Source: Escherichia coli (GTDB lineage: Bacteria; Pseudomonadota; Gammaproteobacteria; Enterobacterales; Enterobacteriaceae). Taken from it: 64,000 nt of DNA. Position numbers: made by a program. Positions 6,001 to 12,000 of the stretch are shown in pieces. Position 1 is the stretch's first letter. Each line of letters starts with the position of its first letter. Location of the stretch: assembly GCF_003334765.1 (NCBI RefSeq), contig NZ_QOWT01000005.1; one strand, 5' to 3'.

Positions 6001-9000
6001 GATGGCGGCATTTTTTAATTTTTTTGGCGTGTTATTGGGCGGACTTAGCGTTGCCTATGCCATTGTCCATATGTTGCCAACCGATTTGTTGCTGAATATG
6101 GGGTCAACCCACGGTCTGGCGATGGTCTTTTCCATGCTGCTGGCGGCGATTATCTGGAACCTGGGAACGTGGTTCTTTGGTTTACCGGCCTCCAGTTCGC
6201 ACACCTTGATTGGTGCGATTATCGGCATCGGTTTAACCAACGCGCTGTTAACCGGCTCATCGGTGATGGATGCGTTAAACCTGCGTGAAGTGACCAAAAT
6301 TTTCTCCTCGCTGATTGTTTCCCCTATCGTCGGCCTGGTCATTGCGGGTGGTCTGATTTTCCTGCTGCGCCGTTTCTGGAGCGGGACGAAAAAGCGTGAC
6401 CGTATTCACCGCATTCCGGAAGATCGCAAAAAGAAAAAAGGCAAACGTAAGCCGCCATTCTGGACGCGTATTGCGCTGATTGTTTCCGCTGCGGGCGTGG
6501 CGTTTTCGCACGGCGCTAACGACGGGCAGAAAGGGATCGGCCTGGTGATGCTGGTACTGGTGGGGATTGCCCCTGCTGGCTTCGTCGTCAATATGAACGC
6601 GTCCGGCTATGAAATTACCCGTACCCGCGATGCCGTCACCAACTTCGAACACTACCTGCAACAGCATCCTGAACTGCCGCAGAAGTTGATTACGATGGAA
6701 CCTCCATTGCCTGCGACATCGACTGATGGCACGCAAGTAACAGAGTTTCACTGTCATCCGGCAAATACCTTTGATGCGATTGCGCGCGTTAAAACGATGC
6801 TGCCAGGCAATATGGAAAGTTACGAGCCGTTAAGCGTGAGTCAGCGCAGCCAGCTGCGCCGCATTATGCTGTGCATCTCTGATACCTCCGCGAAGCTGGC
6901 GAAACTGCCAGGCGTCAGTAAAGAAGACCAGAACCTGCTGAAAAAACTGCGCAGCGATATGTTAAGCACCATTGAGTACGCACCGGTGTGGATCATCATG
7001 GCGGTAGCACTGGCGCTCGGCATCGGCACCATGATTGGCTGGTGTCGTGTAGCGATGACCATCGGTGAGAAGATTGGTAAGCGCGGCATGACGTATGCGC
7101 AAGGCATGGCGGCACAAATGACGGCGGCAGTGTCTATCGGCCTTGCCAGTTATATTGGGATGCCCGTCTCCACAACACACGTCCTCTCGTCTGCAGTAGC
7201 AGGGACGATGGTGGTGGACGGCGGTGGGTTACAGCGTAAAACGGTAACCAGCATCCTGATGGCGTGGGTGTTTACTTTACCGGCGGCGATTTTTCTTTCT
7301 GGTGGGTTGTACTGGATAGCATTGCAGTTGATTTAACCTTCCTGAAAATGCCCGGTCCTGGCGATCGGGCATTTCCATTTTTGACTAGTGATAACCACGC
7401 GCGGTCATAAAATCCGTAATCGCTTTTTCTGCATCAATCAGCACCTTTTCCAGTGGCTGATTAGCATCGATATCAACCAGTTGTGCACCACCAAAGGTTA
7501 ACTGTGGCGTTATGGCTATCTTTCTTGCCAGCGATTCCCTTTTGTGGTCAGGCTTACGCGCGCAGGCCACGTCTAGATCGACATTGAGTTTGATGACCAG
7601 ATCAGGTTTATGGCTCGCCATCCAGTGAAACGCTTTACGTTCCTGGCTTGCCAGCCATGAGACAAAACGACCACCTTCAATGTTAGGTGGGAACACTGTA
7701 CCATCGTAAGCGCCAGGAATTTGGTCCTGAGGATAACGGTCGGTTAGAACAATTAACCCGCGACGACGACAGGCAAGCATATGACGAAAGCGCAGTAAGC
7801 GACGGGCGACAAACGCTGTAATTACCAGCGCCGGAACAGGGCCAGGCAATTTTTTTGCTGTTTTCACCTGATTTCGTTCAATTGTTTTATGTAAGGATTT
7901 TCCCATGAACGGTAATTTTGTCACTGCACGACCGACATTTCCGGCCTGTTTTCCTAAATGAACTCTTTCGGCAGCACCATATTTTTCGACAACGGTAATG
8001 AGATGTTCACACACCGTTGACTTGCCTGAACCATCGCTACCAATAACGGCAATTAATGGAGGTGTTATTGACTGCATGAATATATCCTTTAATTTAAATA
8101 TCCATTAAAAATATTTATTTGGTTAATATGTTTTTATGAAAGCGTAATTCAGGTCAATGTCACAATTAACCATTGTCACAATAAGGTTGAACGGATATTC
8201 TGAGCACGGACCACGTAATATTCAATACATTATTTGCTGCCGGGTTTTTCGTGAATCAACGTAATATGTCAATAATTAATTCCACGCCAGTGCGTGTTAT
8301 TGCCATTGTAGGATGTGATGGTTCAGGTAAATCGACCCTCACGGCAAGCCTGGTAAATGAACTGGCAGCAACAATGCCAACAGAACACATTTATCTCGGG
8401 CAATCGTCCGGGCGAATTGGCGAATGGATTTCACAGCTCCCTGTTATTGGCGCACCTTTTGGGCGTTATCTGCGAAGTAAAGCGGCACATGTGCACGAAA
8501 AGCCCTCCACACCGCCTGGCAATATGACTGCGCTGGTTATCTATCTGCTTTCCTGCTGGCGGGCGTACAAGTTTCACAAAATGTTGTGTAAAAACCAGCA
8601 AGGCTATCTGCTCATCACCGACCGCTACCCGCAGGTTGAAGTGCCGGGTTTCCGCTTTGATGGCCCGCAATTGGCAAAAACCACGGGCGGTAACGGTTGG
8701 ATAAAAATGTTAAGGCAGCGCGAGCTGAAGCTGTACCAATGGATGGCGTCTTATTTGCCCGTATTGTTGATTCGTCTTGGCATTGATGAACAAACCGCGT
8801 TTGCGCGTAAACCTGACCACCAACTGGCAGCGTTACAGGAAAAAATCGCCGTTACGCCGCAACTGACATTCAATGGCGCAAAGATCCTTGAACTGGATGG
8901 TCGGCAACCAGCCGATGAAATTCTGCAAGCGTCACTACGCGCAATTCACGCTGCGCTTTCCTGATCACCAAAATGGATAGGGGATGATTTAACGAATGGA

Positions 9001-12000
9001 CGCACTACAAACACAAACTGTTAATAGTACAACCGCGCCGCAGCCCAACTACATTCCGGGGCTGATTGCGGTGGTCGGGTGTGATGGCACCGGTAAATCC
9101 ACACTGACCAATGACCTGGTGAAATCGCTGCAACAACACTGGCAAACCGAGCGGCGCTATCTGGGGCTGCTCTCCGGCGAAGACGGCGACAAAATCAAAC
9201 GATTGCCGTTGGTTGGTGTCTGGCTCGAACGGCGACTGGCGGCCAAATCCTCGAAAACCCAAAGCATGAAAACCAAATCTCCGGCGCTATGGGCGGCGGT
9301 GATTATGTACTGCTTCTCGCTGCGAAGAATGGCGAATCTACGCAAGGTTCAGCGACTGGCGCAAAGTGGCGTTCTGGTGGTCAGCGATCGCTTCCCGCAG
9401 GCTGAAATTTCGGGCTTTTATTATGACGGACCGGGGATCGGCGTCGAACGTGCGACCGGGAAAATCAGCATGTTTCTGGCGCAGCGCGAACGGCGTTTAT
9501 ACCAAAAAATGGCGCAATACCGTCCTGAATTAATTATTCGTTTGGGGATTGATATTGATACTGCCATCTCCCGCAAGCCTGACCATGACTATGCCGAGCT
9601 GCAGGACAAAATCGGCGTCATGTCGACGATTGGCTATAACGGCACAAAAATTCTTGAGATTGATTCCAGAGCGCCCTACAGCGAAGTGCTGGAACAGGCA
9701 CAGAAGGCGGTTTCTCTGGTTGCCATCGTTTCTGACCGCCGAAGTTTAACTTAAGGCTGGCGGGATACTTTTTACTATCAACGATAAGGTCAGGCTGAAT
9801 TGGCGGGTTTTAACATCAAACATTGGTTTGCAGATGGCGCGTTTCGCACCATTATTCGCAATAGCGCCTGGTTAGGCTCCAGTAATGTCGTGAGCGCTTT
9901 ACTGGGTCTGTTGGCGCTCTCGTGTGCCGGTAAAGGGATGACGCCCGCCATGTTTGGCGTACTGGTGATTGTACAATCGTACGCCAAGTCGATCAGCGAT
10001 TTTATTAAGTTTCAGGCATGGCAGCTGGTGGTTCAGTACGGAACACCAGCATTAACCAACAATAATCCGCAGCAATTCCGCAATGTCGTCTCATTTTCCT
10101 TCTCGCTGGATATCGTCAGCGGCGCGGTGGCGATTGTCGGCGGCATTGCCTTACTCCCTTTTCTTTCCCATTCATTAGGTCTGGATGACCAAAGCTTTTG
10201 GCTGGCAGCGCTGTATTGCACGCTCATTCCTTCAATGGCTTCCTCCACGCCGACCGGCATTCTGCGTGCGGTAGATCGCTTCGATCTAATTGCTGTACAG
10301 CAAGCGACGAAACCTTTTCTGCGCGCAGCGGGGAGCGTCGTAGCCTGGTATTTTGACTTTGGTTTTGCGGGTTTTGTTATTGCCTGGTACGTGTCGAATC
10401 TGGTTGGCGGCACCATGTACTGGTGGTTTGCCGCGCGCGAATTACGCCGCAGAAATATCCATAACGCCTTCAAATTGAATCTGTTTGAGTCTGCCCGACA
10501 CATTAAAGGCGCGTGGAGTTTTGTCTGGTCAACCAACATTGCCCACTCCATCTGGTCGGCGCGTAACTCGTGCAGCACAGTGCTGGTGGGGATCGTGTTA
10601 GGACCCGCTGCCGCCGGGTTATTTAAAATCGCCATGACATTCTTCGACGCCGCCGGAACGCCAGCGGGTTTACTGGGCAAAAGTTTTTACCCAGAGGTGA
10701 TGCGTTTAGATCCGCGCACCACCAGACCGTGGTTGTTAGGCGTGAAGTCAGGTTTACTGGCGGGCGGAATCGGTATTCTGGTGGCGCTCGCGGTGTTGAT
10801 CGTCGGCAAGCCGCTTATTTCGCTGGTGTTTGGCGTTAAGTATCTCGAAGCGTATGACCTGATTCAGGTGATGCTGGGCGCAATTGTGATTTCGATGCTG
10901 GGCTTCCCACAGGAGTCATTGCTATTGATGGCGGGAAAACAGCGCGCTTTTCTCGTGGCGCAAACCATCGCCTCAATCGGCTACATCGTATTGCTGTTCA
11001 TGTTCTGTCATCTGTTTGGCGTGCTGGGAGCAGCGTTTGCTTATTTCGGTGGGCAATGTCTGGATGTGGTGCTCTCGTTAATTCCGACCTTAAAGGCATT
11101 TTTTCAGCGCCATTCCTTGCTTTATAACGCAGCCGGAGAGAAATCCTGATGATGAGAAAATATTTCCCGCTTGAGGCGAGCGAGCGTCTATTTGTTGCAG
11201 TTGAAGAAGATGATGTCGTTGATGCACAGGTCAGTTTGCCGCCGACTATCGCACTAAGTTGTACCACCGAAATCATCCATGATAATTACGCGTTATGCCT
11301 GCAATTCTGGCTCAATGGCGTCAATCGCCAGGAGTTACTGCGTTTAATATGCAAACAGGCCAAAGGCGATGAGTTGACTGCTGATGAGCGCAAACAATTT
11401 AAATACATGCGAGCGCGCTACAAGCACCTGCGTTTTGCGCAACGGCTGTATTTAAAGAAGCATCAGGCCGGATTTTTATTCGGCAAAACGACCGTTTTTT
11501 TGGGGCGTTTTCAGGACGGTTTTCGTAACGGTAAGAAAAATATTGTGTCGTATTACGGCAACTTGTTACGGGTTTATTTAAGCTCTCCGGTCTGGTCGTT
11601 GGTGAACTATTCATTACGCCATAGCCAGTTAGAAAGCGTAAGCGGTTTTATTGCCTATCGGCAAAAGCAAATGCATACCCTGAAAGAGATAATTGCCAAA
11701 CCGCGACTAACCGGCAGGGAATTTCATGATGTGCGAAAAATCATCAGCCAGCAGGTTTCTTATTACGACACCTTAAGATCGCTTGATCCTGAAAATAAAG
11801 AGGCGTTACAGATTTCCCGCTTCCTCGCCGCCATTAATGGCCTGATGGGGGATAAACACGACGACATGGTGGCGGATGATATGGAAAACCGCCAGTCGTA
11901 TGATGCACCGGTGGCGCTGGATAGCGATATTCGCCAGCGCTTAGAGCTGCTGATTTCGCGTTTTCCGCTATAACCGGAGCAATGATGTCATCTCGTTTGA

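Follow-up and report, generated by a model that had tools for sequence, protein, structure and literature searches.

Three adjacent genes of Escherichia coli, yghT, yghS, and yghR, encode P-loop proteins that, as judged from a structure model and from sequence profiles, are members of the thymidylate-kinase superfamily at the level of fold. They lie at positions 7385 to 9754 of a 64,000-nucleotide stretch of DNA (NCBI RefSeq assembly GCF_003334765.1, contig NZ_QOWT01000005.1; hereafter the window) from a non-K-12 E. coli chromosome, 8.9 kb of which is 100% identical to strain PF9285 and others. The genes beside them are those of an established ceramide locus. We favor, with a confidence that stops just short of even, the reading that the three products constitute a non-redundant kinase set, working sequentially or as a hetero-oligomer, which phosphorylates the ceramide head group before its export by the flippase-like protein YghQ and the permeases LptF2 and LptG2.

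Predicted fold and conserved residues

An earlier note on this DNA had described three paralogous genes with products of 230 to 252 amino acids, and the calling of open reading frames (ORFs) on the window locates them precisely where it had placed them: yghT (7385 to 8077, minus strand; 230 amino acids), yghS (8251 to 8964, plus strand; 237 amino acids), and yghR (8996 to 9754, plus strand; 252 amino acids), with gene names taken from the RefSeq annotation of a 100%-identical E. coli genome (NZ_CP038791.1). In pairwise BLASTP comparisons the products align over their full length, with 34 to 44% identity across ∼218 residues and E values of 1e-46 to 4e-61, and their apparent paralogy is far beyond chance. 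The three shared motifs that the note had listed are present as described, each once per protein and at equivalent positions: a Walker A of the form G-[SC]-DG-[ST]-GKST (GSDGSGKST at residue 13 of YghT, GCDGSGKST at residue 21 of YghS, and GCDGTGKST at residue 28 of YghR), an hhhhDR segment continuing as DR[YF]PQ (DRYPQ in YghT and YghS, DRFPQ in YghR), and a C-terminal [AS]RKPDH (ARKPDH in YghT and YghS, SRKPDH in YghR). The note was also right that LSGGQ is missing; there is no LSGGQ-like string in any of the three proteins.

A profile of the three paralogs was searched against 1.84 billion cluster representatives and recovered a large family, with 2,157 matches at an E value of ≤0.001 and 1,274 at ≤1e-10 (clusters at 50% identity). 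An AlphaFold model of YghR, the R-clade protein chosen for structure modeling, reached a pLDDT (predicted score of the local distance difference test) of 89.5 and a predicted template modeling score of 0.85 when it was built from a 105-member alignment; with the three paralogs alone as the alignment the pLDDT was 64, and that model was unusable. The 105-sequence profile, on the basis of sequence alone, matched solved dTMP kinases with E values of 8e-11 to 1e-7, in alignments that cover the P-loop, the helix before the DRY motif, and the strand and LID segment that carries RKPDH. YghT, YghS, and YghR thus have the predicted kinase fold with its P-loop, DRX motif, and LID, and the note's preference for a kinase-like protein over an ABC ATPase is upheld by both model and profile; remote homology and structure prediction place the three in a kinase family, not in a non-kinase NTPase family. 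The AFDB50 neighbors were family members only, all of them automatically named.

Conservation across the 105-sequence alignment falls on the residues expected of a working kinase of this fold. Invariant positions (YghR numbering) are D30, G31, G33, G57, D131, R132, P134, D144, and R193, and those conserved in at least 90% of sequences are K34, Q135, G145, P146, E165, and P195; together they define the family motifs GxDGxGK[ST], DRxPQ, DGP, and R-x-P within RKPDH. The arginine of the DRX motif clamps the donor and acceptor phosphates (PMC12995831). A finer comparison took in 19 T, 16 S, and 16 R sequences. It showed no variation at the Walker lysine, R111, D144, E165, the DR motif, or the RKPDH residues, and few of the remaining conserved positions vary among the T, S, and R orthologs.

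Age of the triplication

We built a neighbor-joining tree, without bootstrap, of T, S, and R orthologs from 15 loci together with fused and outgroup sequences. The three paralogs form three clades, each holding the same set of lineages, with the topology T | (S,R), and orthologs are 51 to 84% identical to their own E. coli paralog versus 33 to 43% across paralogs. The trio is nested among relatives of ∼500 amino acids, and the second domain of fusion proteins from Acetobacteraceae branches ahead of the split between S and R. Three clades with the same lineages and intact catalytic residues argue that the triplication is old and that all three copies have stayed catalytically equipped, as far as their sequences indicate. 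An old triplication with intact residues in turn favors either three non-redundant activities or an obligatory partnership and disfavors decay.

Fusions between the paralogs also occur. Two proteins (P0112 and P0122) and a 493-amino-acid ORF of Oecophyllibacter saccharovorans (L002:9836-11317), all Acetobacteraceae-like, join a T-type domain to an S/R-type domain, and one further protein (P0121) joins S to R. The deposited call for the Oecophyllibacter gene, of 438 amino acids (P0029), begins within the first kinase domain; the complete ORF regains the N-terminal Walker A (GCDGSGKST) of the T-type domain, and P0029 is probably truncated at its N terminus by a wrong start call.

Linkage to sphingolipid genes

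The E. coli neighbors of the kinases comprise a ceramide synthesis operon and a pair of export permeases. On the minus strand lie spt, encoding serine palmitoyltransferase (14757 to 15929); acpR, encoding a specialized acyl carrier protein for Spt (15929 to 16177); a gene of the NAD-dependent epimerase/dehydratase family that is the epi or cerR homolog (16209 to 17123); and aasR, encoding an acyl-AcpR synthetase, or fatty acyl-AMP ligase (17120 to 18844). On the plus strand, yghO (19215 to 20357) encodes a homolog of the N-acyltransferase required for dihydroceramide synthesis (“aca,” CC_1154 homolog), and paralogs of lptF (12576 to 13646; LptF2-type permease) and lptG (13643 to 14722; LptG2-type permease) lie between the kinases and spt. 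Spt, AcpR, and AasR of E. coli B have been shown to make 3-oxo-sphinganine, with the Spt of that strain assayed, and the epimerase-family gene and yghO are homologous to Caulobacter genes required for dihydroceramide (PMC9386255). LptF2 and LptG2 of Caulobacter have been reported as sphingolipid transporters powered by LptB in a preprint that also draws the locus of E. coli UTI89 (10.64898/2026.04.12.717747). The earlier note had the kinase genes flanking this lipid cluster, which needs correction; all three are at one end of it.

Synteny was assessed by a metagenome scan and by local tblastn of the fetched loci with 14 E. coli proteins, which yielded 28 informative loci, that is, loci outside E. 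coli with enough flanking sequence. The co-occurrence with an Spt-like operon that the note had envisaged is seen in 24 of these 28, where spt/acpR/cerR/aasR genes lie within 10 kb of the kinases in at least three gene orders. The first order is E. coli-like, with the spt operon beyond the lptG paralog; in the second, the spt operon stands directly beside yghT (Serratia liquefaciens [L003] and loci L056, L061, and L067); and in the third it is placed between yghR and yghQ in loci without lptFG paralogs (L064, L068, L071, L074, L077, L082, and L084). We take linkage that persists through such rearrangement as a sign of functional coupling.

Complete E. coli genomes carry the kinases in 4744 of 5426 cases and the downstream lipid genes in 4202. 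Strain K-12 (L009, NC_000913.3:3128000-3146000; locus positions 1044 to 4409) is in the minority; its lipid genes have been lost through an IS5-associated deletion, with an IS5 element (insH9) standing in place of everything between the 3′ portion of yghQ and the beginning of yghO. The missing genes are one for a 274-amino-acid protein, the ytfJ-like gene, lptF2, lptG2, spt, acpR, cerR, and aasR. The YghO of K-12 is annotated as a “putative DNA-binding transcriptional regulator,” yet it is a ceramide N-acyltransferase homolog.

Partner genes and more distant relatives

Two genes directly downstream of yghR recur with the kinases. One is yghQ (9800 to 11149, plus strand), whose 449-amino-acid product is a flippase-like membrane protein of the MOP superfamily (Wzx/MurJ type) by a weak NCBIfam MOP flippase match; its Serratia ortholog matches Polysacc_synt_3, and it is found with the kinases outside Enterobacterales too. 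The other (11149 to 11973, plus strand) encodes an uncharacterized 274-amino-acid protein with ∼36 invariant positions rich in Arg, Lys, and His (e.g., K85, R88, K92, R95, H193, R196, K197, H237, and D238), which occurs together with the kinases in Enterobacterales, in an unassigned metagenome lineage, and in Acetobacteraceae. A YghQ-like MOP protein and the 274-amino-acid protein accompany the kinases in Serratia and in locus L008, and the same pair is found with them in Oecophyllibacter, whose locus has no spt within 10 kb. The 274-amino-acid protein gave no Pfam, NCBIfam, or PDB match in searches with the E. coli protein, with 12 family members (Pfam), and with a PDB profile search. HxxRK and LGxxxD-like motifs raised the suspicion of a CHAD domain, and one homolog (P0314, Martelella alba) bears the UniRef name “CHAD domain-containing,” a label that profile tests did not confirm: the Pfam and PDB searches just mentioned were negative for CHAD as well, hhalign against the CHAD protein YgiF of E. 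coli gave a probability of 0.5%, and hhalign of the N-terminal half against the C-terminal half found no internal repeat.

Enzymes of lipid phosphate chemistry recur around the kinases in other lineages. Genes for LpxE-like PAP2 phosphatases adjoin them in three unrelated loci (L008, L086, and L088). One of these (L086) encodes an LmtA-like lipid A 1-phosphate O-methyltransferase and an LpxE-like PAP2 (L086:9219-9977 and 10816-11382) along with LptF, LptG, and an LptA-like gene; another (L008) has an OlsC/LpxO-like acyl 2-hydroxylase and an LpxE-like PAP2 (L008:7418-8188 and 8264-8842). In the third (L088), the PAP2 gene (10696 to 11364) is convergent with a lone T-type kinase gene at the end of an operon in which, on reading by eye, there are two aminotransferase-like ORFs, one acetolactate-synthase-like ORF, and one epimerase-like ORF.

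A sister family of ∼490 to 506 amino acids (P0161, P0167, P0172, P0176, and P0189) has a C-terminal kinase domain like those of YghR, YghS, and YghT and an N-terminal domain of ∼250 amino acids with a “CHWKSN...GxTDLDLLV” segment; a guess that the latter is nucleotidyltransferase-like found no Pfam, NCBIfam, or PDB match by sequence. In all four loci examined (L005, L091, L093, and L095), the gene that comes after such a relative is a second P-loop gene, of ∼231 to 249 codons, with a weak dTMP-kinase match for the one in L005, and three of the four loci are Wzx/Wzy/glycosyltransferase loci. Kinase relatives are adjacent to MOP flippases or fused with them, as in P0216 (978 amino acids), where a MOP flippase is joined to both domains of the ∼500-amino-acid proteins. 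The common denominator of all these loci is envelope lipid or lipid-linked glycan metabolism, with MOP flippases and lipid-phosphate phosphatases recurring.

A proposed role in ceramide head-group phosphorylation

Thymidylate and nucleoside monophosphate (NMP) kinases put a phosphate onto a phosphomonoester, MOP flippases classically handle cargo linked to lipid pyrophosphate, and PAP2 enzymes hydrolyze lipid phosphates and pyrophosphates. This kinase chemistry, taken together with the DRX arginine, the MOP flippase, and PAP2, leads us to propose a phosphorylated and possibly pyro- or oligophosphorylated ceramide. Ceramide from Spt, AcpR, AasR, CerR, and YghO would be phosphorylated with ATP by YghT, YghS, and YghR at the cytoplasmic face of the inner membrane, the three acting in sequence or as a hetero-oligomer; ceramide would first become ceramide-phosphate, and NMP-kinase-style transfer of phosphate onto phosphate would then give a di- or oligophosphate. 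YghQ, of the MOP type, would flip this anionic product, which the LptF2/LptG2 permeases (with LptB) would then extract. That the acceptor is a lipid, which positions are phosphorylated, in what order, and whether a complex forms are all points that we infer. A functional analogy is provided by LpxK, the lipid A 4′-kinase; this P-loop kinase works at the cytoplasmic face, adding phosphate to a membrane lipid that subsequently undergoes Lpt-type export. None of YghT, YghS, and YghR has a transmembrane segment, and all are basic, with a net charge of 9 to 13, properties compatible with a peripheral role at an anionic membrane.

The gene content of the E. coli string narrows the options. ORF calls, RefSeq annotation, and Pfam show no glycosyl-, nucleotidyl-, or CDP-alcohol transferase in it, which leaves phosphoryl transfer as the only plausible head-group chemistry that the string encodes, and the 274-amino-acid protein is the sole other cytoplasmic candidate for such chemistry. 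This bears on a different explanation, in which the kinases would phosphorylate soluble precursors of the head group (a sugar, a hydroxy acid such as glycerate, or an unusual nucleotide), the three paralogs would stand for three substrates or steps, and another enzyme, possibly the 274-amino-acid protein, would transfer the product to ceramide. The absence of transmembrane segments fits this, relatives of the kinases do occur in sugar and polysaccharide loci, and the Caulobacter head group is built partly from activated soluble precursors (CDP-glycerate, made by CpgD). We nonetheless consider it unlikely, given that the string has no recognizable nucleotidyl-, glycosyl-, or phosphotransferase for the attachment step and that the recurrent neighbors in T/S/R-type loci are lipid-phosphate enzymes (PAP2 and LmtA-like), not sugar-nucleotide enzymes.

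Several points weigh against ceramide head-group phosphorylation by the trio. The synteny sample was ranked by YghT similarity and derived from metagenomes, and it is not an unbiased phylogenetic profile. In 4 of the 28 informative loci (L002, L083, L086, and L088) there are kinases and no spt within 10 kb; such loci, together with the relatives in Wzx/Wzy polysaccharide loci, show that the kinase family as a whole is not sphingolipid-specific. K-12 keeps yghR, yghS, and yghT intact as orphans without the lipid genes, and its transposon mutants in yghQ, yghR, yghS, and yghT appear only in the strain list of a silkworm-killing screen (PMC9278758). The end product of the E. coli sphingolipid pathway is not described in the searchable literature. 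Finally, the only characterized bacterial ceramide kinase, CpgB, is similar to diacylglycerol kinases (DAGK), and a lipid kinase with a thymidylate-kinase fold would be without precedent.

The comparison with CpgB deserves a closer look. Its likeness to YghT, YghS, and YghR lies in the proposed role, that of a cytoplasmic ATP-dependent enzyme in a bacterial sphingolipid locus that needs a first phosphorylation of the head group. The proteins themselves differ: CpgB is DAGK/sphingosine-kinase-like with a GGDG motif, whereas the Ygh proteins have a P-loop and a predicted thymidylate-kinase fold and lack a DAGK domain, and we therefore rejected homology to the Cpg enzymes of Caulobacter. No annotated product of the E. 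coli locus is named as a Cpg enzyme in RefSeq, and the E. coli-type locus is not among the genomes with reported orthologs of the Caulobacter cluster CC_1168 to CC_1152 (PMC11324152).

Comparison with PPK3 and other nucleotide-binding enzymes

The closest precedent for YghT, YghS, and YghR is PPK3 of Sulfolobus acidocaldarius (Saci_2019/Saci_2020), an α2β2 polyphosphate kinase made of adjacent “dTMP kinase” paralogs and encoded in operons that also include Pst genes and genes for CHAD proteins and SixA/PhoE phosphatases (J Biol Chem 2026, PMC12995831). The parallel is that at least two thymidylate-kinase-fold paralogs are encoded side by side, three in the present case, with fused forms as well. 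By extension, the Ygh proteins might form a PPK3-like oligo- or polyphosphate kinase heteromer (ATP <-> polyphosphate) in which the basic, helical 274-amino-acid protein would bind polyphosphate and the tie to lipids would be indirect, e.g., through phosphate or energy supplied at the membrane. The several paralogs and fusions of the Ygh family, the UniRef CHAD label, a histidine phosphatase gene (His_Phos_1) in the Oecophyllibacter locus, and the adjacency of the phosphate transporter gene pitB in Enterobacteriaceae can be cited in its favor. We regard both this polyphosphate heteromer and an indirect tie of that kind as quite unlikely. All three paralogs retain the DRX arginine (R132), for which the regulatory subunit of PPK3 has another residue, and there is thus no dead “regulatory” subunit among them; the family profile scores canonical dTMP kinases at 8e-11 and the structure 2plr at 4e-6, and thus shows PPK3 no preference over ordinary dTMP kinases; and the CHAD similarity was not detected in the tests described above. 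The neighborhood, moreover, is one of lipid synthesis and export, with no PPX or Pst genes, and a polyphosphate role would leave the linkage to spt, the MOP flippase, the LptFG paralogs, and PAP2 unexplained. E. coli also already has PPK1.

A hybrid of the two ideas would have a PPK3-like heteromer of YghT, YghS, and YghR, possibly with the 274-amino-acid protein, act as a machine for phosphoanhydride bonds and build a di-, tri-, or oligophosphate on ceramide itself, with NMP-kinase chemistry turned to a lipid phosphate, after which the MOP flippase would flip the product and LptF2G2 would export it; we judge this improbable. Just as improbable is the corollary that flipping would then resemble that of undecaprenyl-pyrophosphate-linked cargo and that the product would be a lipid-A-like anionic lipid of the outer membrane. 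Along the same lines, short polyphosphate that is associated with the membrane and does not depend on PPK1, reportedly observed in older work, could come in K-12 from the orphan trio.

Ceramide head-group phosphorylation, our preferred reading, presupposes catalysis, and a further alternative denies it: the three proteins might be non-catalytic or regulatory NTPases, for instance serving YghQ or LptF2G2 as ATP-dependent chaperones or gatekeepers, or they might be relics on their way to being lost. Such a role would suit the K-12 orphans, the fact that no activity has ever been shown for YghT, YghS, or YghR, and the lack of a dedicated ATPase in the LptF2G2 locus of Caulobacter. It is very improbable, since the DRX arginine and the RKPDH of the LID are invariant in three clades over deep divergence, which speaks for catalysis and purifying selection, since the fold is that of a kinase and not of an ABC or transport ATPase, and since Caulobacter LptF2G2 uses LptB. 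The idea of an ABC ATPase or energizer for LptF2G2 was rejected on the same two grounds of fold and LptB. A role in anti-phage defense was likewise rejected; PADLOC matches were of P-loop length only, with E values of 9e-5 or weaker.

RefSeq names YghT and YghS “dTMP kinase” and YghR a “nucleoside/nucleotide kinase family protein” or, in other strains, a “hypothetical protein.” The resemblance to true thymidylate kinases (Tmk; TIGR00041, PF02223) extends to the fold, a P-loop containing the acidic residue (GxDGxGK[ST]T), DR[YF], the basic LID, and the order of secondary structure elements, and TIGR00041 is the best, if weak, NCBIfam match. Scores nevertheless stay far below the curated cutoffs: against a cutoff of 83.25 bits for TIGR00041, YghT reaches 24.2, YghS 25.2, and YghR 33.0 bits; against 193 for NF005923, the three reach 17 to 24 bits; and for Pfam PF02223 (Thymidylate_kin), YghT gives nonsignificant i-Evalues of 0.53 and 3.5, and YghR orthologs have only “faint” precomputed matches. 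The Ygh proteins differ from Tmk in an extra helix-loop insertion of ∼25 to 30 residues in the acceptor-binding half, in their own invariant PQ, DGP, and RKPDH motifs, and in their occurrence as a set of three genes in lipid loci; in the hidden Markov model alignment, the “KREPGG” segment of Tmk stands opposite “LGkssG,” with no arginine, and R111 in the helix before DR[YF] is kept. For all the agreement of names, fold, and P-loop/DRY/LID motifs, that the three are genuine (d)NMP kinases is therefore scarcely credible, with scores so far under the cutoff, an insertion and different residues where the TMP-binding “REPGG” segment aligns, three copies conserved in lipid loci across taxa, and an essential canonical tmk elsewhere in E. 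coli. The RefSeq names are unsupported by the curated dTMP-kinase model (scores about one-third of its cutoff) and inconsistent between strains, a pattern that, on these profile scores, amounts to systematic misannotation.

Novelty and significance

These are long-known y-genes in a locus already recognized as a sphingolipid locus, and the basic observation is not new. No paper in the searchable literature assigns a function to yghR, yghS, or yghT, as the earlier note had believed, and its interpretation overall is partly supported. As far as the same literature shows, four things are new: the assignment to the thymidylate-kinase superfamily, backed by a confident model; the T | (S,R) triplication, apparently ancient and with its active sites preserved; the kinase fusions; and the rearrangement-proof linkage to spt loci with YghQ, the 274-amino-acid protein, and PAP2.

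Bacterial sphingolipids substitute for or complement lipopolysaccharide in the outer membrane. In Caulobacter, the Cpg head-group pathway and a dedicated LptF2G2 exporter have already been elucidated. The ceramide locus of E. coli, BL21 and uropathogenic strains among them, is complete and has an LptF2G2 of its own, and the three kinases and the 274-amino-acid protein are the only candidates in that locus for making the E. coli sphingolipid head group. If ceramide phosphorylation by the trio is correct, these would be the first lipid kinases with a thymidylate-kinase fold, bacteria would have a second way to phosphosphingolipids that is unrelated to the Cpg pathway, and the trio would offer a handle on a large uncharacterized family that is also found in Wzx/Wzy polysaccharide loci.

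Gene map of the locus

The gene order across this part of the window is hybC to hybG, yghU, gss, pitB, yghT (minus strand), yghS, yghR, the yghQ-type gene, the 274-codon gene, a YtfJ-family gene (11985 to 12545, plus strand; NCBIfam TIGR01626, 216 bits versus a cutoff of 151, in agreement with the RefSeq name), and the lptF and lptG paralogs; on the far side follow spt, the acyl carrier protein gene, the epimerase-family gene, and the fatty-acyl-AMP ligase gene, all on the minus strand, and then yghO and glcC. From yghS to the lptG-like gene, seven genes form a closely packed string (8251 to 14722) with overlaps or gaps of ≤46 bp; yghS and yghR are at its head, the lptG paralog is its last gene, and yghT is monocistronic and divergent. 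In a consensus scan, a strong hairpin with a 16-bp stem (14720 to 14754) closes the string, facing the convergent spt operon. The divergent spacer between yghT and yghS (8078 to 8250) is AT-rich and, by sequence scan, contains a σ70-like site at 8173 to 8201 on the plus strand; for the corresponding K-12 spacer, an FlhDC peak from genomic systematic evolution of ligands by exponential enrichment (SELEX) has been published (PMC9962212).

On the other side of yghT, the same kind of scan found a hairpin with a 12-bp stem (7346 to 7374) between the convergent pitB and yghT, which is likely a bidirectional terminator shared by the two genes. The genes pitB (5837 to 7336) and yghT converge in those loci that are nearest to E. 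coli (YghT 76 to 99% identical), and the pairing is not seen in Serratia-type or more distant loci; this adjacency may be a coincidence or may reflect phosphate demand.

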